The translations under genes were made by a program, and so were the position numbers. Shown piece after piece: positions 1 to 10,489 of a stretch of 10,489 nucleotides of DNA. The stretch is from NCBI GenBank assembly GCA_963765145.1, contig CAVXVG010000034.1, positions 1 through 10,489 of the forward strand. The letters are read 5' to 3'. Within the stretch, counting starts at the first letter, position 1; each line of letters opens with the position of its first letter. The stretch is from Parachlamydiales bacterium (GTDB taxonomy: Bacteria > Chlamydiota > Chlamydiia > Chlamydiales > JAJFMK01). The notes under the pieces are model-generated. The model searched no databases, was not told the origin of the DNA, and saw only the letters and a list, made by a program, of their open reading frames with translations.

Positions 1-211
1 ATTGGACCGACATTGTTTTCCATCCATTGATGAAATTTCTCTACGTTTACATAAAAACGTCCATTGACCATGGAAAGGAATGCACCCGCTCCATTTTCTT
101 CTCGTCTTGCCGTGTAATATTGCGCATAGTGCCCTGACTGGGATACCGAAAGTGTTCTTTCCACTTGGTAAGCGCCACCCAATCTAATTTTTTGTCGACT
201 TCTATAGTCAT
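1..211 (-). pseudogene. Small winged-helix/excisionase-like DNA-binding protein, frameshifted by a 2-nt duplication near 112-115; runs off the window edge
   Basis: ATG at 211 gives MTIEVDKKLDWVALTKWKEHFRYPSQGTMRNIT. Removing one AC from ATTACACGGCA continues it as ARREENGAGAFLSMVNGRFYVNVEKFHQWMENNVGP. The joined protein resembles small island/phage DNA-binding proteins (W..H..P..G.LR....ENG.....GR......F..W pattern). Confidence 0.55.
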
Positions 212-511
212 TGTTTTAAACCTATAAATTCTTTCATTCTCTGCATTTGGCAGACATGGGCAGACTGCATCTTTCACAATCATGTCAACAAATCCAAATT
301 TTAAATTATTTTTAAAAAAAATAATACACATGCAAAATAAAAATTTTCAAGTCAAAAAGTTTTTAAATAACTTAAATGTCAGGATTTTTGTCAGAGGCCA
401 GGCCAGCAAGAGCCTGCTTGAAATAGATCAATTGAGCATGGAGTTAAAGACTGAGCAGGCTGAATCAAGCCAGGTCAGGCTGTACTATATTGTGAAAAAT
501 ACAGGGAACAT

Positions 512-557
512 ACGGAATCATAATCCGTGGGTCGTTGGTTCAAATCCGACTGCCCTA
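512..557 (+). pseudogene. 3' half of a tRNA(CAT) gene (Met-type); att-core-like remnant
   Basis: Anticodon arm ACGGA-ATCATAA-TCCGT, variable loop GGGTC, T-arm GTTGG-TTCAAAT-CCGAC, then TGCCCTA. No D-arm or 5' acceptor strand upstream. Confidence 0.8.
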
Positions 558-637
558 ACGTCTCCGGAAAAGATTGCAGGTGCCAGCAACTCCTGTTTAG
601 CTTTCACTTTTAAAAAAATTAAAGAATAGAACTATTT
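517..637 (+). repeat. Left copy of an imperfect direct repeat (tRNA 3' fragment plus downstream flank); partner at 10317-10447
   Basis: ATCATAATCC..GTCGTTGGTTCAA(A/G)TCCGACTGCC and ACTCCTGTTTA(G/T)CTTTCACTT..AAAAAATTAAAG occur in both copies. Confidence 0.85.
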
Positions 638-718
638 CTACTGGAGAGTCCAAGCTTGTCACTAGGTGCGATAACCGCCTAAACTCAAAAAGAGCACTTT
701 TTTTATCAAAGCAACGCG

Positions 719-985
719 CTAGGCTGAATCCAAAAATTTATTCCTCTCTCCATTCATGCCAGATTGCTCCCATCGACAGGAGATTGGCATAGGAGCTCCC
801 GACCATCGTAGAGCATTAGCTTGCAAAAGGCGTTGGTTTTGTTCTTTACGCGCTTCTTCTTTTTGCGGCGTGAGTTCGTTTTCGCTTTTCCGCAAACGTT
901 TCATCAAGCCAGAAGTTAGTGATGCCTCTGCTTTATTGTACCTGTCTTGCCACTCGGAAAGAAGACTCATAACTCTCATTACCAT
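719..985 (-). CDS. Hypothetical coiled-coil-like protein or gene remnant
   Basis: 88-aa ORF with a charged helical N-terminal half. No recognisable family and no clear RBS. Confidence 0.25.
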   Translation of the reverse strand: MVMRVMSLLSEWQDRYNKAEASLTSGLMKRLRKSENELTPQKEEARKEQNQRLLQANALRWSGAPMPISCRWEQSGMNGERNKFLDSA

Positions 986-1068
986 ATTATTTTTTGATGT
1001 AGGCCGTATGTACCGATTGTAAAAGAGGAGTATGGGGTCAAGTATGGGATCAGGCCTAGGGTGTTGAT

Positions 1069-1695
1069 CTAATAGGTAAAGACCCTGGGCCTGACCCCAA
1101 ACACCAACAGTTCCTCATGGACCTGCCTAAGCTCATCCATCCAGGGTCTTAAAACGCTCTCATGTTGGTGCGGGATGAGAAAATGGGCAACCCTCTTAGA
1201 TAGGTCTAGCGAGTGGGTACAAGATGTAGAGCAGGGGACGTGGCTGATGAAGGCTTTTCCTTGCCTATACGCATAAGGATTAATAAGCTTAAAAGGACCA
1301 TTGAACGGTTGGGTGATAAGCCAATCTTCAAATGCATCAATCTGCATCTCTCCAACCTCTGCGATTTTGCGGCAACAACAAGCCGGGTACCCCAGAAGCT
1401 CCCCTAACTCCTGTTCGTGAGGGTTATGAGAATGGTCTACGCTATTCACTAGGCGAAGACGCTCTTGATTTGAAGCGATATAGATAAAGCCATCTGCGCT
1501 TCTGTCAAAATAAAATTCAAACTGCTTACACCACTCTTCAAGGGAATTAAGTGTCTTTTGAAAAGACTTTAGCCTTGTGCGTACACACGATTTTAACCCC
1601 ATGAGAAATAAGAGGATATCGACATTGGCCGAAAGAGGGAAGAGAGGGTGGAGTTTCTGAACAAATGCAGAATAAGGGCGAAGGAAATTACTCAT
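1069..1695 (-). CDS. DUF483-like Cys/His-motif protein, last gene of the RiPP operon
   Basis: Motifs ELGELLGYPACCC and FISHVPCSTSC. The start overlaps the upstream stop (ATGAGTAA), suggesting translational coupling. Confidence 0.7.
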   Translation of the reverse strand: MSNFLRPYSAFVQKLHPLFPLSANVDILLFLMGLKSCVRTRLKSFQKTLNSLEEWCKQFEFYFDRSADGFIYIASNQERLRLVNSVDHSHNPHEQELGELLGYPACCCRKIAEVGEMQIDAFEDWLITQPFNGPFKLINPYAYRQGKAFISHVPCSTSCTHSLDLSKRVAHFLIPHQHESVLRPWMDELRQVHEELLVFGVRPRVFTY

Positions 1696-2296
1696 CTCTC
1701 AAAATTTCCACTCCCGACCCATCGTATTTGCTATCAGTTTTCCAAAGATACATAATCAGGCTGTTGCGCTCCCCCTCAACAGGACTAACGAAGTGATGCG
1801 AATGAGGTGAAATCTCAAAACAAATACCGCTGTTTGACTGGTACGAATATTTTTTGATGACGTCAGATTTATCCAGAGAAGCTAAAAAAGAAATTTCTCC
1901 TCCGGAAACTAGCTCGCCTTCTTTGGCAAATTGGAGAATAAAACGAAAATCTTCATAGCCAAGCTCCGGGTCACAGTAGTCGTTGTGAACATCGATTTCT
2001 TGTGAAGTGATCAGTTTATTTGCTACCAAACGGACAGCGTTTCTTAAACGGACACCGAGCAATTTTTCAATAGACTGCCTGAAAGGAATGAAAAAAAGGG
2101 GATCAAATAGAAGTGTCAGATCGTGGCCATCTGCCGGCAGAATCACGGATTCATATTGCCGGTAAAAATGGGTCTTCTTTTCCTTCCAAAAAACGTGGGA
2201 AAGAGCCTTTTGCAGAAGAAGATAGCTCTCTTCGGAAAAGATGTGTGAACATGAAAAAAACCGGAACTTTCCTGAATGAAAAAAAATCGGTCTCAA
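1688..2296 (-). CDS. yhhC: 2OG-Fe(II) oxygenase, YhhC-like RiPP tailoring hydroxylase
   Basis: HxD motif (VHNDY), distal His (HSHHFV) and 2OG-binding RxS (ERNS). Sits in the triceptide operon. The TTG start is uncertain. Confidence 0.8.
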   Translation of the reverse strand: MRPIFFHSGKFRFFSCSHIFSEESYLLLQKALSHVFWKEKKTHFYRQYESVILPADGHDLTLLFDPLFFIPFRQSIEKLLGVRLRNAVRLVANKLITSQEIDVHNDYCDPELGYEDFRFILQFAKEGELVSGGEISFLASLDKSDVIKKYSYQSNSGICFEISPHSHHFVSPVEGERNSLIMYLWKTDSKYDGSGVEILRDE

Positions 2297-2307
2297 ATTT
2301 TCCCAAT

Positions 2308-3369
2308 TTAAGAGAATTTTTCATTGAAATACTCATGAGGGGCATGCTCTTTAAGATATGCGCTGAAACCATCATCTTGAATGATATTGAGCTTATCGGC
2401 TGTTGAAAACAGATGAGAAGTGACCTCTCTCCAATATTCGGAAGGGAAAAAATCAGGGGAAAGGGCCACGTTCGTAAATACTTTAGCCGGCAACAGACTA
2501 ACTTGCTCTAGCAATTCAGTGATTCTACCTTTTATTTGCTTCAGGTCCAGATCAATGGATGATGAACGCTTGTTCCAACTGCTATCTCCATTATAACGAT
2601 TGTTAAACCCATCACAATCAATATGTAAAAACAACAGAGAGCTGTGCCGAGCCTCATCTAAAAGCTTGAAAGGGGAGGAGGCTAAAGTGTAACTATGTTT
2701 TCCATAAGAAGCGTCCAATTCAAGGGCAGGCCTCTGCTTGCCCTTTACGAGAAGGGTGTCGGAATGGTGAGTACAACCAAGAGTCTGGCGTTTGAACTCC
2801 CCCTGTTGAGAGTATTTTAAGTGGAAAATATCTACCTCGTCGATCTCATGGAGTAGCGGACAGATAAAAGAGCCTATATCCACCGACTTTTGAATGATCG
2901 CCTCCCTAACGGAACGGGGATCATTAAAATTTGTCTCCTTTTGTGTGAACATGCAGCGATACGCTTCCCCATTCCGCTCTAAAAGAGGGCTTCCAAGATC
3001 TGCGTGATCATCCACATGGAAGAGAGAAATTTTATCTACGGCCATCCCTTGAGATCTTAACCATTGAACAACAAGTGACCAGTAGTAAAGCGACCAGGAA
3101 TCATGAAAAGAAAGCATCCCATTTTTGAAAAAGCGGCAGTACAAGCCCAACTCCTCAAAAGAGATCTTTTCAAACCAACGCTCCAACGCTACTTCCATAC
3201 GAGGGTCTGCAAAATGTTTTTTGTAGTCTCTAAGAAAAACAACGAGGTTCCATTGATTATCAACTAGCTCTTCAAAAGGAACTAAATCGAAAGGGAAATA
3301 GCGATCCAGCAGCTCCCGTCTTTGCATTTTATTATCTGGCAAAGTTGAACGAGGAAGGACAAACTGCAC
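2308..3369 (-). CDS. UPF0489-family / peptide arginase-like metalloenzyme (ureohydrolase-type fold)
   Basis: Metal-binding motifs FHDSW, HVDDHADL and HIDCDGF, plus LSPDFFP. The likely start is GTG at 3369, 2 nt after the rSAM stop; the ORF track extends to TTG 3429. Confidence 0.75.
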   Translation of the reverse strand: MQFVLPRSTLPDNKMQRRELLDRYFPFDLVPFEELVDNQWNLVVFLRDYKKHFADPRMEVALERWFEKISFEELGLYCRFFKNGMLSFHDSWSLYYWSLVVQWLRSQGMAVDKISLFHVDDHADLGSPLLERNGEAYRCMFTQKETNFNDPRSVREAIIQKSVDIGSFICPLLHEIDEVDIFHLKYSQQGEFKRQTLGCTHHSDTLLVKGKQRPALELDASYGKHSYTLASSPFKLLDEARHSSLLFLHIDCDGFNNRYNGDSSWNKRSSSIDLDLKQIKGRITELLEQVSLLPAKVFTNVALSPDFFPSEYWREVTSHLFSTADKLNIIQDDGFSAYLKEHAPHEYFNEKFS

Positions 3370-3371
3370 CG

Positions 3372-5552
3372 CTAAACCATGGTTAAAGAATGTTGAGAGG
3401 AGAGGGAGAGAAACTCTTTCCACAAACAATCAAAGAATAACTGGCCTGATGGAGTAAAAGAGATGTTATTTTTTACATCGTTTAGACAAGACCTCAAATT
3501 TTCAAGATGGATGGACAATGCATGTTCAGCGATCTCCAAACATCTCCCTTCCGCTTGCATCTTACTCCAGAAACGAGCTACGTGCGTAAAAACGTAGACG
3601 GCGTGTAAAACTCCGTGCGGAGGCCGGAATGTTTTTGGCCAGGGTGAGTAAATAAGTGTCTCTTTGTCTGTGAAAAGCTCGAAACGGCTCATCAATAAGT
3701 ACAATTTCTGATGAAGATGCTCGTGGATAAGAGAAGCTGCCACAACATACGGGGAAAGCAATCCGTCTGACTTCCAAGTGCCAATAAAAAGCGCTCCCGG
3801 TATTGTTTCATCGCTAAAGGAGACATCTTTATCGGGATGGGCGTTAGAATCCTTCACAAGCTGGATATGTCTGCTCGCCAAAGCCATTTCTTGGTAGAGT
3901 GCAGCATCGTAATTTTCTAAAATCTCCAAAGCCTCTTGGAGATTTTGCATCCCTTCTCTGAGCGTGGCGGGAGGATGTTCGATGGTGATATTGGTTCCAA
4001 GAGATAATCGATACCACCGATCTTGAGACTGGATGGTAAACGCAACTTTCTCTTTTTTAGAGACAAACGAAAGGAGTTGATCAAAATAATCGGGATCTGG
4101 AGGGAGTTCCTTCTCATCAATGTTATAAACACGGTGGTTGACACTGCAGCTATGCATCGCTCTCAGCCATGCCCTACTTGTCGGCTGCAAGAGTGCAGGC
4201 TTGACCTCCTCAAATGAAAGCTTCTTACACGCAAGGATAACCTCTTGCTTATCCTTAAACGTGTTTAAAGCATAAGGTATGAGAGACAAAAATTTGACAT
4301 GTTCTTTTCGGGCTATATGCTCTTGAAGGGCGTGGATCTGCTGGCTAGAGGTTCGAGAATCGCAAAATGCCTCCATTTCAGAACGGGTGAACTCTGGGAC
4401 TAACTTCAATCCCTGCTTCTGGCTCTCTACATGCAACGTTTCTTTCAATCTGGAAGTGATGTGATCAATGAGCGCATACATCTCTTCGCAATAAACGGTT
4501 GGATTGAGATAACCATTCCGACCAAAGCGATGCCCTATAAATCCACCTCCGCAAACAAGAAGATGCTTACAAGACTGACATTGCGGACTTAACCCCTCTT
4601 TGGTTAAAAGAGTTCGATGAAAACGGATCTTTTCTGCCGATTCTGCAGCAAGTATTGGGTGTTCTTCTAAGTTTAGGCCCAGGGAAGAGGAATTTTCCTC
4701 TGTAATTTTCAAAACATCGTGGTTGTGATAGGTACCATCTGTTTCAAGGACAAGGAGGCTGATATCCCCCAACCCGAAAGAGTCTGTCTCGCTGGTATGA
4801 CCCAATACAGCTTTAAGCAGCCAGTCAAAGTATTTGCATTTGAGATGAGAATAGTGGTCGAACCAGCAGTCAAAAGCCTCGATTAACCAATTTTTGTAAA
4901 GATCTGGATTTTTATCCCTGCCGGCAGGTAGGGCAACATGATTAGCGTCCGGGATAAGGATGTTGAACTCAGAAACCCCATTTGCATCAAAAAACTCGAA
5001 TAATCTTCTAGGTTCAGAATGGGGGTTAATAACAGCAATGCAGCCCGAAAAAGTCTCCGGATACCGTCTTAAAAGCTGTAAAGCAGCATAAACCTTATCA
5101 AAAGTGGGCCTATTCTTTAGATCCACTCGATGTTGATCGTGCATCTCTTTTGGTCCATCGATACTGAGAGAAACAGTGATCCCATGTTCCTGAAGCGTCT
5201 TTAAATGCTCTTCTTTTAAGAGCGTTCCATTTGTCTGAATTCCGAAACTGGCTTCACAATGAAGGGGAGATAACCTGGCCCGAAGGAGTTCTGTGAAACG
5301 AATAATATTTTCCACTCCGAAAAGGAGCGGTTCCCCGCCGTGATAAACGATCACCACACGTCGCAGGCCCTTTTCAGCTACGTACTCGCCAAGCCGTTTT
5401 GCAAACAGTTCTTGGTGATGTTCTGACAGGCATCTAGGTTTATTTTTCCAAGTTTGGTCAGCATGTTGGTACATGTAGCAATAGTCGCAGTTAAGGTTGC
5501 ACCTGGATGCAACCTTAACTACGAACGAAGAGAATTTAAGCGGTCTTGTCAT
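3372..5552 (-). CDS. yhhB: Cyclophane-forming radical SAM/SPASM peptide maturase fused to a C-terminal aKG-HExxH domain (YhhB/FxsB-like)
   Basis: CNLNCDYC (5478-5501), HGGEPLL, QTNG and SIDG motifs. SPASM motif CQSCKHLLVCGGG...YC. C-terminal HEHLH (3711-3725), YSPW..RP..GVLH. Directly follows the precursor peptide. Confidence 0.92.
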   Translation of the reverse strand: MTRPLKFSSFVVKVASRCNLNCDYCYMYQHADQTWKNKPRCLSEHHQELFAKRLGEYVAEKGLRRVVIVYHGGEPLLFGVENIIRFTELLRARLSPLHCEASFGIQTNGTLLKEEHLKTLQEHGITVSLSIDGPKEMHDQHRVDLKNRPTFDKVYAALQLLRRYPETFSGCIAVINPHSEPRRLFEFFDANGVSEFNILIPDANHVALPAGRDKNPDLYKNWLIEAFDCWFDHYSHLKCKYFDWLLKAVLGHTSETDSFGLGDISLLVLETDGTYHNHDVLKITEENSSSLGLNLEEHPILAAESAEKIRFHRTLLTKEGLSPQCQSCKHLLVCGGGFIGHRFGRNGYLNPTVYCEEMYALIDHITSRLKETLHVESQKQGLKLVPEFTRSEMEAFCDSRTSSQQIHALQEHIARKEHVKFLSLIPYALNTFKDKQEVILACKKLSFEEVKPALLQPTSRAWLRAMHSCSVNHRVYNIDEKELPPDPDYFDQLLSFVSKKEKVAFTIQSQDRWYRLSLGTNITIEHPPATLREGMQNLQEALEILENYDAALYQEMALASRHIQLVKDSNAHPDKDVSFSDETIPGALFIGTWKSDGLLSPYVVAASLIHEHLHQKLYLLMSRFELFTDKETLIYSPWPKTFRPPHGVLHAVYVFTHVARFWSKMQAEGRCLEIAEHALSIHLENLRSCLNDVKNNISFTPSGQLFFDCLWKEFLSLSSQHSLTMV

Positions 5553-5573
5553 AAAAATAACGAGAGCGACTCC

Positions 5574-5777
5574 TTAGCCTCTATTATGTGTATGATACAT
5601 TCTGTCGTAAGCCTGACTAGCTTGCGCTAGAGGGTCAACAGAGGTTTCAGAAGCACATCTTTTCAGTGCTGAGTGATCTAGGAGAGCTGGGTCGTTAGAT
5701 TGCAAAGCTTCCGTCATGGCCTTTTGCTCCTCGAGCTGAATTGGCCGAAACACAGGTGGAGGGATGTTTAATTCCAT
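5574..5777 (-). CDS. yhhA: Triceptide RiPP precursor peptide, YhhA-like (67 aa; core YDRMYHTHNRG)
   Basis: ATG at 5777 preceded by AAAGGA. Leader segment LLDHSALKR. C-terminal aromatic-X-X motifs YDR, YHT and HNR. Ends 21 nt upstream of the rSAM gene. Confidence 0.88.
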   Translation of the reverse strand: MELNIPPPVFRPIQLEEQKAMTEALQSNDPALLDHSALKRCASETSVDPLAQASQAYDRMYHTHNRG

Positions 5778-6073: not shown

Positions 6074-6394
6074 TCACTTTCTTGGCTGACTCTTTCTTTG
6101 GAAGCTCATTTCGTAGCCAATAGAATCGAGAACTTTTGAGAGTGTGTCGACTGTAATGTTTTTTCGCTCACCTGATTTTAATCCCTGGATAATGGTGGGA
6201 GAGACTCCGGCGGCAGCAGCCAATCTCCTAACAGAAACATGGTCTTCTTCCATGGCTGCTAAAATGAGCTCAGATAGCAAAAGATCCTTATACTCTTTAT
6301 CAAAGAGTTCCTTCTGTTCTTTGTCCTCCATAAGCTCTTCATAAGACGATTTAATTTTCTTCTTATTCCCTGTTATTTCTTTCTTGGCAGCCAT
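6074..6394 (-). CDS. XRE/Cro-type HTH protein (HigA-like orphan antitoxin or regulator)
   Basis: HTH segment VSVRRLAAAAGVSPTIIQGLKSGERKNITVDTLSKVLDSIG. Lies immediately after hicB. The start could be 6394, 6400 or 6406. Confidence 0.8.
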   Translation of the reverse strand: MAAKKEITGNKKKIKSSYEELMEDKEQKELFDKEYKDLLLSELILAAMEEDHVSVRRLAAAAGVSPTIIQGLKSGERKNITVDTLSKVLDSIGYEMSFQRKSQPRK

Positions 6395-6407
6395 GACCAT
6401 TTCCAAT

Positions 6408-6815
6408 CTATCTTTGCGCTCTATATTGCTTGAAATTATCCAAACCTTTGTCGATTAATAGATCCATTGTCTTGCTGATGGATTTGTGAGTCATCTGGGC
6501 GATTTTGGCTATGTGATAATGGCGTTCGCTGTCTGTGCGGTAGGAGATATTCCCTTTATACGCTTCTTTGTTAATAGGCTCAGGAACAGGCTCGCCTTTG
6601 TCTTTGTAAATTTCGACTGCGCAGGCAATGAGATCTTTTATTTCCTCCATACCCTCATCGAGGCTTTCTGAATCTGTACAAATTCCAGGCAATTCATTGA
6701 CTCGAATGATGTAATAGCTCTTTCCTTTGTGTGATTCAGTTTCAATAGAATAGGTCCAGGGTAGATTGAGATAATAATCTAGGTCTTTATCGTCCTTTGT
6801 CTTTTTCTTATTCAT
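6408..6815 (-). CDS. hicB: HicB family antitoxin
   Basis: Partial RNase H-like N-domain (YIIRVNELPGICTDSESLDEGMEEI...GEPVPEP) and RHH-like C-domain (YKGNISYRTDSERH). Overlaps hicA by 8 nt. Confidence 0.88.
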   Translation of the reverse strand: MNKKKTKDDKDLDYYLNLPWTYSIETESHKGKSYYIIRVNELPGICTDSESLDEGMEEIKDLIACAVEIYKDKGEPVPEPINKEAYKGNISYRTDSERHYHIAKIAQMTHKSISKTMDLLIDKGLDNFKQYRAQR

Positions 6816-7038
6816 GATCTTTTAAAACCTCCTCTAACATTTTCATTTGATATGGCAATAGCTGGGAACGCTTTTTAATAGAAACATTCTTCTCATAGCC
6901 TTCTTTCCAGAAGATGAAATGAGAGCTTCCTGGCGATCTAACTTTAAAACCTAACTTGAGCAGAAAGCCTTCTGCCTCGTCAAACGAAACGACCTGACCA
7001 TTTTTGATCTTCAGCTTAAGCTTGTCAAACTTGCTCAT
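6808..7038 (-). CDS. hicA: HicA family toxin (mRNA interferase)
   Basis: 76 aa, basic, with the LLKLGF...GSSHFIF motif and PYQMK. Lies upstream of hicB. Confidence 0.88.
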   Translation of the reverse strand: MSKFDKLKLKIKNGQVVSFDEAEGFLLKLGFKVRSPGSSHFIFWKEGYEKNVSIKKRSQLLPYQMKMLEEVLKDHE

Positions 7039-7044
7039 ACCCGC

Positions 7045-7074
7045 ATGATATCAAAATCGATATCGACCTGTCAA
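7045..7074 (-). promoter_or_regulatory. hicAB promoter with palindromic operator
   Basis: TTGACA (7069-7074), 18-nt spacer, TATCAT (7045-7050). GATATC-N6-GATATC at 7047-7064. ATG lies 6 nt after the -10 box. Confidence 0.75.
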
Positions 7075-7320
7075 ATTGAGAGCACTCTCCCCCTACACTC
7101 TCTTTGTAGCTCTAAAAGAAATTGGGAGGATTTGTCACAAATCTCTCACAGTGACGAGCCAAAACAATCTGTTCTGGACAAAAAGGGACAACAAACCTAG
7201 AATTCCAAGCTGCAAAGGATAAGTATGTTAAATACTGTCAGTTGATTATCGCCCTGTTAAATTGAGGGCACTCTCCCCTACACTCTTTGTAGCTATGAAA
7301 AGAATTGGGAGATTTGTCAC
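7073..7320 (+). repeat. Two imperfect direct copies of a ~65-bp unit (7073-7138 and 7259-7320)
   Basis: AAATTGAG(A/G)GCACTCTCCCC..TACACTCT..TTGTAGCT..AAAAGAA..TTGGGAG..ATTTGTCAC in both copies. Confidence 0.9.
7126..7244 (+). repeat. 119-bp direct repeat, copy 1 (copy 2 at 10174-10292)
   Basis: Ungapped alignment by eye gives 7 mismatches in 119 bp. Contains the palindrome GATTTGT-C-ACAAATC near its start. Confidence 0.92.
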
Positions 7321-7698: not shown

Positions 7699-8559
7699 AT
7701 GGAAGTAGTGATGAATCACGATTGTTGCTTTGACGAGACCGAGCTCACAGAAATCCCTCAAGAGCTCGACTATGACATTAAAAGGTTTAGCGCCTACAAA
7801 AACAAGCTGAGGGCTATCCCTGAGTATTTTTTCAACTTGACCAAGTTAGAAAGGCTCAATATCAGCGTCAACCACCTATCATATCTTTCAGATAGCATTG
7901 GCCATCTGAAAAGATTGCAAGTGCTGGATGTCAATCACAACGCATTAGCCTCTTTACCAGAGTCCATCGGCAACCTTCGCTCACTCCAGTTTCTCTATCT
8001 AGCTGGGAACCGCCTTACAACATTACCCGCGTCCATCAGAAATCTCAAAAATCTGATCTATTTGAACATCGCACAAAACGACTTCGAATCGGTTCCTGAA
8101 TGTATCGGGGGCATGGACAACCTCATCGAACTAAGGATATATAACAATCGTCTCCTCTCTATTCCAAACACAATAGGCCAACTTCTGAACTTACGAGAGT
8201 TACATGCCATGAACAATAAGATCAGCACTCTTCCTGATTCTATTGGCCAGCTTCGTCATTTAAGAAAATTGATGCTCGAGAATAATGAAATTAAAACATT
8301 GCCAGAAAGCCTTGGCCAATTAGAAAGCCTGACCGACTTAGATTTAAGATCCAACCGGCTCCTTTTCCTTCCTGAAACGATAGGTCATTTGAAATCCCTT
8401 CGCTTTTTAGATTTAAGAGACAACAACCTCTCAAGCCTACCTTCAAACCTACTCAACTTAACCAACCTAGAGAGACTAGATGTAAGACTGAATAAGTGCC
8501 TTGCCATCCCCTCCTGGTTCCAAGAGCTTGAAAAACGTGGATGCACTGTTTTTTATTAA
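7699..8559 (+). CDS. Leucine-rich repeat protein (about 10 regular 23-aa repeats plus one degenerate repeat)
   Basis: Repeated LPxSIGxLxxLxxLxLxxNxLxx units. No signal peptide or effector domain. The start may be ATG 7711. Confidence 0.92.
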   Translation: MEVVMNHDCCFDETELTEIPQELDYDIKRFSAYKNKLRAIPEYFFNLTKLERLNISVNHLSYLSDSIGHLKRLQVLDVNHNALASLPESIGNLRSLQFLYLAGNRLTTLPASIRNLKNLIYLNIAQNDFESVPECIGGMDNLIELRIYNNRLLSIPNTIGQLLNLRELHAMNNKISTLPDSIGQLRHLRKLMLENNEIKTLPESLGQLESLTDLDLRSNRLLFLPETIGHLKSLRFLDLRDNNLSSLPSNLLNLTNLERLDVRLNKCLAIPSWFQELEKRGCTVFY

Positions 8560-8852: not shown

Positions 8853-9086
8853 CTAGATTCTGCGATGGCTATCCCATGCGGAAACTAAATGAATTTTTCC
8901 TCCTCTAGCAGCACCCTTGATGTGTTTGCCATCAATTGCTATCAGCTTCTCTTTCTCTTTATCAGGCAATGACTGAATCCAATTGATCAATGATCTTTCA
9001 AGTTGTTTTGGGTTTAGCCTCGTCAATAACCACCAAAATACGTCGTAGCTTGGCGCTTCCTCCATTTTCAGAATGCGCTGGAACAT
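8853..9086 (-). mobile_element. Internal fragment of an ISAs1-family transposase
   Basis: PSYDVF..LL.RLNP..L......W and IAIDGK.IKG....IHLVSAW motifs. Both ends of the transposase are missing. Confidence 0.85.
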
Positions 9087-9304
9087 ACTGTCATGTTTTT
9101 CGTTTCACCAGACCCGATCTCTTGGATAATGATAGGAGAAACGCCGGCAGCAGCGGCTAGCCGTCTAACAGAAATCTCATCCTTTTCCTTGAATGCTAGA
9201 ATGAGTTCGGAGAGCAAAAGAGCTTTGTATCCTTCTTCGAAAGGAGCTCTTTGCTCTTTGTCCTCCATGAACTCTTCAAAGCTGGATTTAGCCTTATTCT
9301 TCAT
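9068..9304 (-). pseudogene. 3'-truncated XRE HTH protein, paralog of 6074-6394
   Basis: EEFMEDKEQ...LLLSELILA...SVRRLAAAAGVSPIIIQ..SGE.KN.TV aligns with the paralog. Similarity stops at about 9087, where ISAs1 sequence begins. Confidence 0.78.
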
Positions 9305-9341
9305 AGTAACTCCCCTCTTTCACCAAGGTTCGTTATTCCAG

Positions 9342-9722
9342 TTAAGCTGACATGCGCAATTGGTTGAAAGACCTTTCTGATACATGAATGCTTGGAGGCA
9401 CTGTCTTCGGTTTATGCGGTTTTGTGGTGATTTCGATGTCAAAGCCAAGTGACATAACCAATTTCAACAAACGTTCAATTGAAAATTCAGACAGAAGTCC
9501 ACGAACAATTTTAGAGACTTTAGGTTGATCAATGCCCATTAATGCAGCTGCCTCTTGCTGTGTCATACCCCTTCGTTGAATGATATTAGTGATCAACATC
9601 GCAAGCTCGGCTTTTGCTTTTGCATCTTCTGGATTTGGGAGCCCAAAATCTGCATAGACATTCCCTGATCCAACAGTGAACTCAATCTCTTCAGACTTAT
9701 TTTTTGGATTTCTTTTTACCAT
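9342..9722 (-). CDS. XRE-family HTH antitoxin (HigA/HTH_37-like)
   Basis: GSGNVYADFGLPNPE, then HTH MTQQEAAALMGIDQPKVSKIVRG..FSIERL. Lies downstream of the RelE-like toxin. Confidence 0.85.
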   Translation of the reverse strand: MVKRNPKNKSEEIEFTVGSGNVYADFGLPNPEDAKAKAELAMLITNIIQRRGMTQQEAAALMGIDQPKVSKIVRGLLSEFSIERLLKLVMSLGFDIEITTKPHKPKTVPPSIHVSERSFNQLRMSA

Positions 9723-10077
9723 AATGTTCCTTATACAGGGCCTCCGCCCACTTTAATCTACTTTTTATTAGATCAACGTCTTCTTTAGGTGTTGCAATCC
9801 CCTTTTTACTTTTTTTCTGGAAGACATGTAGCACGTAAATCACTTCTTCAAAACGCACCGTATAAACTTCTCTATATGTGTCGCCTCGATAATCTCCAAC
9901 AACTTCCAAAACGGTACGCCCATGAAATCCTGTCAGTGGCTTAGCATCTTCGTGCTGGCCTCCATTGACTGCGACATCTAATGCATAAGCAAATAGCTCT
10001 TGGACTTCTGCCGGAAGTTTACGCGCGTCCTTTTGAGAAGACCCTAGGTAGATAATTTGTCGTTTTGTACCTTCCAT
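9697..10077 (-). CDS. RelE/ParE-superfamily toxin, Gp49-like/HigB type
   Basis: Motifs KPLTGF, VLEV..DYRGDTYR.VYTVRF..VIYVLHVFQKKSKKGIATPK.D.DLIK.RLK. The likely start is ATG 10077; the ORF-track TTG at 10113 coincides with the -35 box. Confidence 0.88.
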   Translation of the reverse strand: MEGTKRQIIYLGSSQKDARKLPAEVQELFAYALDVAVNGGQHEDAKPLTGFHGRTVLEVVGDYRGDTYREVYTVRFEEVIYVLHVFQKKSKKGIATPKEDVDLIKSRLKWAEALYKEHYGKKKSKK

Positions 10078-10084
10078 TAATCTC

Positions 10085-10113
10085 ATCATGCCAGCAGTGG
10101 CATAATTAAGCAA
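10085..10113 (-). promoter_or_regulatory. Promoter and operator of the RelE/XRE TA operon
   Basis: TTGCTT, 17-nt spacer, (TGG)CATGAT. Perfect inverted repeat ATGCCA-GCAG-TGGCAT at 10088-10103. Confidence 0.65.
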
Positions 10114-10316: not shown

Positions 10317-10359
10317 ATCATAATCCCTCGAGTCGTTGGTTCAAGTCCGACTGCCGCTA
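10317..10359 (+). pseudogene. 3' fragment of a tRNA(CAT) gene; att-core-like remnant
   Basis: ATCATAATCC, T-arm GTTGG-TTCAAGT-CCGAC, and 3' acceptor strand TGCCGCT-A. The 5' half is absent. Confidence 0.82.
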
Positions 10360-10416
10360 AAAATTCCCTTTAATTCCGCAACGCGTTTGGTGCTAAACTC
10401 CTGTTTATCTTTCACT

Positions 10417-10429
10417 TATCAAAAAATTA
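10417..10429 (+). promoter_or_regulatory. IHF consensus site
   Basis: TATCAAAAAATTA matches WATCAANNNNTTR exactly, about 60 bp from the tRNA-fragment core. Confidence 0.45.
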
Positions 10430-10489
10430 AAGCACAGCAGAATTTTCAAGCCCGATGGGAGAATCACCTCAAGAACAAGACCAAATGGT

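Follow-up and report, generated by a model that had tools for sequence, protein, structure and literature searches.

The 10,489-nt stretch of DNA analysed here (the window) is the complete contig C34 of a Parachlamydiales genome (2.68 Mb, 84.8% complete), and at positions 1069-5777 it carries an operon for a triceptide, a ribosomally made peptide with three-residue cyclophanes. The operon is a variant of the characterised chl/yhh triceptide kind and not a new system, and its core chemistry and most of its gene set are those of the structurally studied chl pathway. There are good grounds to regard it as a functional chl-type cluster of a chlamydia-associated clade, carried as cargo of a genomic island; the cluster itself is real and probably active.

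Operon layout and kinship with the chl cluster

The operon consists of five intact, co-oriented open reading frames (ORFs) on the minus strand, separated by 21, 2 and 11 nt, with an 8-nt overlap of the last pair. Read along that strand, they encode a 67-aa precursor (A, 5574-5777) with a leader and the core YDRMYHTHNRG at 5577-5609, a 726-aa fusion of a radical S-adenosylmethionine (rSAM)/SPASM domain with an HExxH domain (BH, 3372-5552), a protein with the peptide arginase fold (R, 2308-3369, the ORF being open from 3429), a 202-aa YhhC-like 2-oxoglutarate (2OG)-Fe(II) oxygenase (O, 1688-2296), and a 208-aa DUF483-like protein (D, 1069-1695). The same gene order recurs in a genome of the same genus (G001; 78% nucleotide identity) and in many other phyla, so the operon is not a chance arrangement; the ORF layout and this recurrence bear out the tightly packed five-gene operon of the first-pass annotation. 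Its description as a triceptide operon with an rSAM-HExxH fusion and an arginase-fold gene was likewise upheld, by profile hidden Markov models (HMMs) and a fold search. The "unusually rich tailoring set" that had been claimed was not, as the characterised chl cluster also has BH, R and D, plus a GNAT gene.

The BH protein was recognised by curated HMMs above their cut-offs, both in its rSAM/SPASM domain (aa 1-373; NF041707 (YhhB), 469.7 versus 445; TIGR04269 (FxsB), 393.6 versus 370) and in its aKG-HExxH domain (aa ~380-726; TIGR04267, 100.4 versus 40). The first domain contains the CxxxCxxC cysteines C18-C22-C25 and the SPASM cysteines C325/328/334/355, the second the site HEHLH at 610-614 and a third conserved His in G-V-L-H-A. 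The best matches in the PDB were ChlB (9GM3, E 2e-123) and ChlH (8S5F, E 5e-47), and the identities to ChlBH are 49% for the rSAM domain and 35% for the HExxH domain.

The HMM checks that the first-pass annotation had proposed thus gave a divided result, since YhhB, FxsB and aKG-HExxH passed, while YhhA, YhhC, UPF0489 and DUF483 stayed under their cut-offs, the E-values for A, O, R and D ranging from 6e-4 to 1e-27. The precursor scored 31.2 bits against the YhhA model NF041705 (cut-off 36, E 1.8e-7). It is 44% identical over 34 aa to ChlA, which was identified through PDB 9GMC/9GM3, and its leader has the motif H-S-A-L-K-R, the ChlA counterpart being H-P-A-L-N-R. Protein O reached 96.6 bits with the YhhC model NF041706 (equivalog cut-off 150) and is 31% identical to an annotated YhhC, in alignment with which it keeps the HxD motif, the distal His and the 2OG-binding Arg; its first Atlas match was a YhhC cluster (0.95). 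The best reading of these comparisons is that O would work like YhhC despite its low score.

The kinship with chl is anchored by a locus of Chlorogloeopsis sp. PCC 7702 (L032), which encodes the ChlB, ChlH and ChlA proteins of the PDB exactly, save for tags and an R3A change. The gene order A-BH-R-GNAT-D of this locus identifies four of the five genes of the window as chl orthologues. A survey of 68 loci, of which 23 came from genomes and 43 from metagenomes, the window and G098 making up the rest, yielded 32 with a recognisable core, including four near-duplicate pairs. In a tree of 37 rSAM domains, the window falls into a clade of seven rows (support 99/100) with L011, G098 and four metagenome contigs. 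The nearest copy is L011, labelled Parachlamydiales/Chlamydiota, with amino-acid identities of 61-83%, and a homologue of R is listed under the source name Ca. Neptunochlamydia vexilliferae. In several other clusters (L012, L021, L025, L088) a family-2 glycosyltransferase gene adjoins, and the L088 cluster is cut by IS21 and adjoins genes of a His-Xaa-Ser system.

Ring formation and hydroxylation of the core

The core contains three aromatic-X-X motifs, YDR, YHT and HNR. ChlA carries three rings, in keeping with a title cited in the literature. The rSAM domain of BH retains the Asp of an LxPD motif, presumably the counterpart of HtkB D214, a correspondence drawn by position and motif only; HtkB D214 is described as favouring a basic third residue (X3), and the LxPD Asp probably selects for one. 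In the rings formed by YhhB, the Cβ of Arg is crosslinked to C3 of Tyr and to C2 of His (PMC11002830), and the native motif of ChlB includes YDR (PMC11499958). By orthology with these two enzymes, the rSAM domain would bind the leader and, with high confidence, form a Tyr1(C3)-Arg3(Cβ) cyclophane; a His8(C2)-Arg10(Cβ) cyclophane can be predicted just as firmly. The product had been annotated as probably tricyclic, and the YDR and HNR rings are indeed likely, but the middle motif, YHT, replaces the usual His/Tyr-His-Arg while the LxPD Asp is kept. For this middle Tyr5-His6-Thr7 motif, a ring to Thr Cβ, which would give a fully substituted carbinol, has slightly less than an even chance; alternatively, the motif would be left open or oxidised.

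Core position 7 is where the window departs from its family. It is Thr in the window and Arg in 30 of the 32 recognisable cores. A GNAT gene is present in 29 of the 30 Arg7 loci, the exception ending 357 nt after R, and in neither of the two Thr7 loci, the window and L011. Residues 276-279 of the rSAM domain read HDLD in 18 of 20 aligned BH proteins and HNHD in these two clusters. A profile search found no GNAT in the genome of the window or in G001, while the positive control G098 was matched. The three linked changes point, at the level of sequence, at position 7; since Arg7, the GNAT gene and the otherwise invariant rSAM Asp were lost together, comparison with chl predicts both the residue targeted by arginase and GNAT and the enzyme residue that reads position 7. 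Protein O occupies the slot that holds GNAT in chl, and does so in six loci (the window, L011, L034, L039, L042 and L068); in L034 both genes coexist, which means that O is not a mere replacement of GNAT.

Two enzymes of the operon are candidates for β-hydroxylation, which is a likely modification of the product. The product of YhhC is erythro-β-hydroxy-Asp (PMC12186529), and ChlH acts as a hydroxylase on both Asp and His once the peptide is cyclised (PMC12636437). In the window, the HExxH domain and O would act on the middle residues after ring formation. The core holds a single Asp, so the two enzymes either overlap on Asp2 or have split Asp2 and His6 between them. Hydroxylation of Asp2 by O, as by YhhC, is the somewhat favoured prediction, and the odds lean a little towards His6 as the target of the diverged HExxH domain. 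All seven members of the clade lack the equivalents of the Arg of HEHRH (R613), of D606 and of R639, which are invariant in the 13 other proteins; the loss of basic residues would fit a split of Asp2 and His6, without proving it. The up to five catalytic activities of the first-pass annotation need not amount to five kinds of change, since ChlH already takes Asp and His, YhhC takes Asp, and there is one Asp; D, counted among the five, is present as a gene, but it has no assignable function and its enzymatic nature was not supported.

A fully tricyclic product with five distinct changes, including the Tyr-Thr cyclophane, action of O at Asn9 or ornithine, and a step catalysed by D, appears improbable. 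Purifying selection on all five genes speaks for it, as do the restriction of HNHD to the two Thr7 clusters of 20 aligned, as if the enzyme had adapted to Thr, and the ornithine hydroxylases that follow arginases in other ribosomally synthesised and post-translationally modified peptide pathways. Against these stand the retained LxPD Asp, the absence of Thr from the X3 residues named in the available literature on triceptide synthases, the Asp hydroxylase YhhC as the nearest named kin of O, and the lack of D in 8 loci with long downstream sequence.

The arginase-fold protein and the DUF483-like protein

The ORF of R spans 2308-3429 and encodes 373 aa when read from its first TTG; the GTG at 3369 (353 aa), where its homologues begin, is the probable start, and residue numbers given here are those of the 373-aa ORF. 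Its HMM scores are low (PF12640 (UPF0489), 23.3 versus a cut-off of 27; NF052474, 20.1 versus 350). An AlphaFold model of good quality (predicted local distance difference test (pLDDT) 88.9) matched the peptide arginase OspR best (8BRP; Foldseek E 8e-8; Z 19.0, root-mean-square deviation (rmsd) 3.7, 238 residues aligned), with a Z of 10.9 for the next entry. The metal-binding motifs D140-x-H142-x-D144 (DxHxD) and D271-x-D273 (DxD) are kept, and these five ligands are present in all 57 aligned homologues. By sequence pattern, position 110 corresponds to OspR His12; Asp occupies it in 50 of the 57 homologues, His in 5 and Glu in 2.

The Mn-ligand motifs of peptide arginases have been described, and DxHxD is essential in OspR (PMC10028609). 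On this basis, R is predicted, with slightly better than even odds, to convert a ring Arg to ornithine by releasing urea. In the selidamide route a GNAT acylates after an arginase has acted (PMC10373908), and in the common form of the present family GNAT would probably acylate an ornithine tied to position 7; the lineage of the window has lost Arg7 and GNAT, so that any ornithine would stay free or go to D. Some clusters have a second, divergent R (L034, 5284-7335; L035, 8767-10752; L015, 9045-10124), which in L034 and L035 is fused to a GNAT domain behind an N-terminal part without a family label, and this fusion supports a functional link between R and GNAT. The clusters L029, L030, L070 and L073 are of a divergent type: their rSAM protein is distant and their precursor different, a 2OG domain is fused to or lies beside R, and the first ligand position is His. 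In the literature covered on peptide arginases and triceptides, no triceptide-associated arginase was found.

A serious if doubtful alternative is that R is a binuclear metallohydrolase other than an arginase, which would convert Arg to citrulline, serve as a deacylase paired with GNAT, or be the missing leader peptidase. The Asp instead of His at the first ligand position across the subfamily would be understandable on these terms, as would the low PF12640 and NF052474 scores, the ~100 N-terminal residues that do not align to OspR, the lack of a peptidase in the cluster, and the persistence of R after the loss of GNAT and Arg7. However, OspR stands far above the other ureohydrolases in the structure search, the DxHxD motif that is essential in OspR is invariant, and two ring Arg residues are still there as substrates. 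The arginase reading of R is thus retained.

Protein D scored 20.3 bits against DUF483 (PF04467, cut-off 25); of its 108 homologues, 103 match the family at E<=1 (best 2e-8), and the first Atlas match was a DUF483 cluster (0.92) in which 37% of the members have the family label. Cys106, Cys107, His152, Cys155, Cys159, Arg39, Asp87 and Tyr103 are invariant in all 108 aligned homologues, and the Cys-Cys and His-x-x-Cys-x-x-x-Cys arrangements possibly form a metal site. The model of D is of high quality (pLDDT 95.3). With Foldseek nothing reached E<=0.001 (the best entry being 2GUK), and structure comparison gave 2GUK with Z 7.5 and, ranking 2 of 48,161, NleE with Z 5.1 (rmsd 4.2, 106 aligned), which lies in the tool's noise range. 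An NleE-like S-adenosylmethionine (SAM)-dependent methyltransferase was considered and rejected as a weak fold match without sequence support: the profile comparison with NleE had a probability of 0.5, a value that 7 of 60 shuffles attained as well, as did 7 of 80 unrelated ORFs. Sequence searches of the PDB with R and D profiles gave nothing significant, and D had no match in the plasmids and phages searched. Fusions of DUF483 to methyltransferase or rSAM domains have been noted (10.1101/2024.08.14.607894). A metal- or SAM-dependent tailoring role of D, possibly on ornithine, is conceivable but unlikely. It should be noted that 20 of the 32 loci have D, and that R and D are conserved in cyanobacteria, Bacteroidota, Actinomycetota, Acidobacteriota and Chlamydiota; no function for them was found in the literature available.

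Selection, island setting and relation to known pathways

Substitution rates relative to L011 speak for a functional cluster. The ratio of nonsynonymous to synonymous substitution (dN/dS) is 0.07-0.21 for all five genes, and by this measure the cluster is under purifying selection; dS is 0.9-2.0 and hence near saturation, which makes the ratios rough. This roughness is one of several points that weigh against a functional chl-type cluster. The matches of A, O, R and D all lie under the curated cut-offs, R apparently has Asp110 in place of the His of EEH(N/H)EAF (mapped by sequence pattern), and the loss of R613, D606 and R639 from the HExxH domain could mean changed or reduced activity. In the related genome G001, BH is split by a frameshift. 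The window and L011 are sister clusters, so that Thr7, the lack of GNAT and HNHD are one event and not a statistic, and the 84.8% completeness of the genome weakens the call that it has no GNAT. In addition, the surveyed loci were fetched with R as the query, which biases all counts towards R-bearing clusters and makes the share of yhh/chl clusters with R unreadable.

Taken further, such points would suggest a decaying passenger on an old island, in which the genes are present and the pathway is no longer productive. The neighbouring genes are indeed fragments (RidA, ISAs1, HTH), and the frameshift in the relative and the loss of GNAT would agree with decay. This reading is nevertheless very improbable, in view of the five intact frames with their catalytic motifs, the low dN/dS maintained over near-saturated dS, and the occurrence of an identical precursor on two contigs in the protein collection. 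A functional cluster thus remains the preferred reading. A promoter scan was at chance level (10 versus 7.7±2.7), and among the sequencing runs carrying the locus no RNA run is listed, with six DNA rows having shares <0.1.

The prediction that the operon arrived as island cargo was supported by repeats of the 3' part of tRNA-Met(CAT) on both sides and by a patchy distribution, since R turned up in 3 of the 400 phylum genomes and D in 2 of the 4 from the family. The left boundary is an att-like direct repeat at 512-554 (plus strand), identical in 43/43 nt to nt 28-70 of the tRNA on contig C26, and the right boundary is a degenerate copy at 10317-10359 (plus strand), which matches tRNA nt 47-74 in 27/28 nt. 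An end overlap of 2 kb with C26 places the window downstream of the tRNA-Met(CAT) of that contig, and the stretch of C26 that separates this tRNA from the first att repeat has genes for an integrase, a DUF927 protein and a primase. The tRNA 3' repeats on both sides thus place the cluster in the outer one of the segments that form a tandem island array; the segment holding the cluster has no integrase of its own by a scan of the window, and no tRNA was found in the 32 kb around the cluster in G001. A shared dispersed repeat of ~75 nt, ISAs1 fragments and the end overlap assign the contig to the genome, and the G+C content of 41-47%, like that of the genome, points to an acquisition either long ago or from kin.

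Several neighbouring features were recorded. Region 3835-11124 of locus L001, on C26, encodes an integrase, a DUF927 protein, a CHC2/Toprim primase and an ankyrin protein, and resembles a satellite-like integrative element. Window positions 6-1995 are 96% identical to C26 1574-3585, where many small indels break the frames; a paralogous second cluster copy at that site was rejected, and the 96% identity with scattered indels was read as an error-rich contig-end overlap. No other part of the genome matches C26 1-1573. The ~75-nt element, which resembles repetitive extragenic palindromes or miniature inverted-repeat transposable elements, is at 10369-10446, with a weaker copy at 588-637; it follows both att-like repeats and has well over 100 matches in the genome, often as closely spaced inverted pairs. 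A HicA/HicB-like pair with a helix-turn-helix (HTH) gene and a Gp49/HTH toxin-antitoxin pair are at 6074-7038 and 9068-10113, regions that also include a second HTH gene copy, which is truncated and 70% identical in nucleotides to the first. An intact 286-aa leucine-rich-repeat protein, of a kind common in environmental chlamydiae, is encoded at 7699-8559. There is also a 123-nt direct repeat at 7122 and 10170, a local duplication of ~185 nt at 7061/7247, and an 88-aa ORF at 719-985 that matches no family but has a counterpart of 78% nucleotide identity on contig C7.

No peptidase or transporter is encoded in the window, so the product may act within the cell. The bioactivity of triceptides has been described as unknown (PMC12257519). 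An intracellular anti-phage product is a rather unlikely role, for which there is a trend that serves as a lead. Lanthipeptide clusters without a protease, such as the lanthivirin clusters, are reported to be anti-phage (bioRxiv 10.64898/2026.08.26.747419), and strong PADLOC matches (at least 150 bits and at least 60% of the profile, a rule set after the data had been seen) flank 7 of 21 related loci, including DISARM DrmD beside chl, Lamassu, AbiE and HEC-01. The scan covered 108 of 135 flanking ORFs, the 27 left out having been hand-picked for size. The matched comparison, in which one of 15 control regions did not exist, gave 4/14 flanks versus 1/14 control regions (one-sided Fisher p 0.16). 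Moreover, the cluster genes match no PADLOC model save for generic viperin rSAM matches, the flanks of the window itself hold only toxin-antitoxin pairs, and an island location alone would bring such neighbours.

The most far-reaching interpretation would be a re-engineering of the chl pathway in this lineage: Arg7 changed to Thr, GNAT lost and HDLD changed to HNHD so that a cyclophane from Tyr to Thr(Cβ) could form, its carbinol being fully substituted; hydroxylation of Asp and His split between YhhC-type and HExxH enzymes; an Asp-ligated arginase subfamily joined by DUF483, which would be a tailoring enzyme of a new kind, dependent on metal or SAM; and a product acting intracellularly against phages or co-infecting bacteria. 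As a whole this is quite improbable. If true, it would provide a triceptide from an obligately intracellular bacterium, a first function for DUF483 and a role for triceptides. The variant of the chl pathway preferred here is of interest for its chlamydial clade, the linked losses of Arg7, GNAT and the rSAM Asp, the possible Tyr-Thr ring, and the two conserved tailoring proteins. Chlamydial secondary metabolism has been described as largely unexplored (PMC9666466). In the literature covered, which did not take in all the primary papers, neither a chlamydial triceptide nor a study of R, GNAT or D in a triceptide pathway was found; within the same scope, no characterisation of this exact core or of this gene set came up.

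Among known systems, the enteropeptin pathway, with the arginase KgrD and the Fe-S methyltransferase KgrB, is an analogy only: it also combines an rSAM enzyme, an arginase and a further tailoring gene, and D is Cys-rich, but KgrD belongs to PF00491 and not to PF12640, and the likeness to KgrB is one of description. The peptide arginases OspR, PbsE and FlmR/OhkR (PF12640) share with R the fold and five of six Mn ligands; relative to OspR, R is ~15% identical, has an N-terminal extension and apparently has Asp for the His of EEH(N/H)EAF. Selidamide pathways pair an arginase with a GNAT, and the common form of the present family likewise has the arginase beside GNAT. The yhhABC cluster on plasmid p1 of Vibrio echinoideorum shares with the window the YDR and HNR motifs, a YhhB-type rSAM enzyme and a YhhC-type oxygenase, and no transporter or peptidase is annotated nearby in either case; however, YhhB is a stand-alone protein, 29% identical to the rSAM domain of the window, and HExxH, R and D are missing there. 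The chl cluster shares the core Y-D-R-M-x-H-x-H-N-R, the fused rSAM-HExxH protein, and R and D (33% and 38% identical). Its layout is A-BH-R-GNAT-D and that of the window A-BH-R-O-D, with a 2OG oxygenase in place of GNAT, and the chl features GNAT and Arg7 are both missing from the window cluster. The middle motif is HHR in chl and YHT in the window, the rSAM motif HDLD in chl and HNHD in the window, the HExxH domain of the window lacks the Arg of HEHRH and the D606/R639 equivalents, and the host is a chlamydia instead of a cyanobacterium. The cluster is thus a natural perturbation of a structurally studied pathway.

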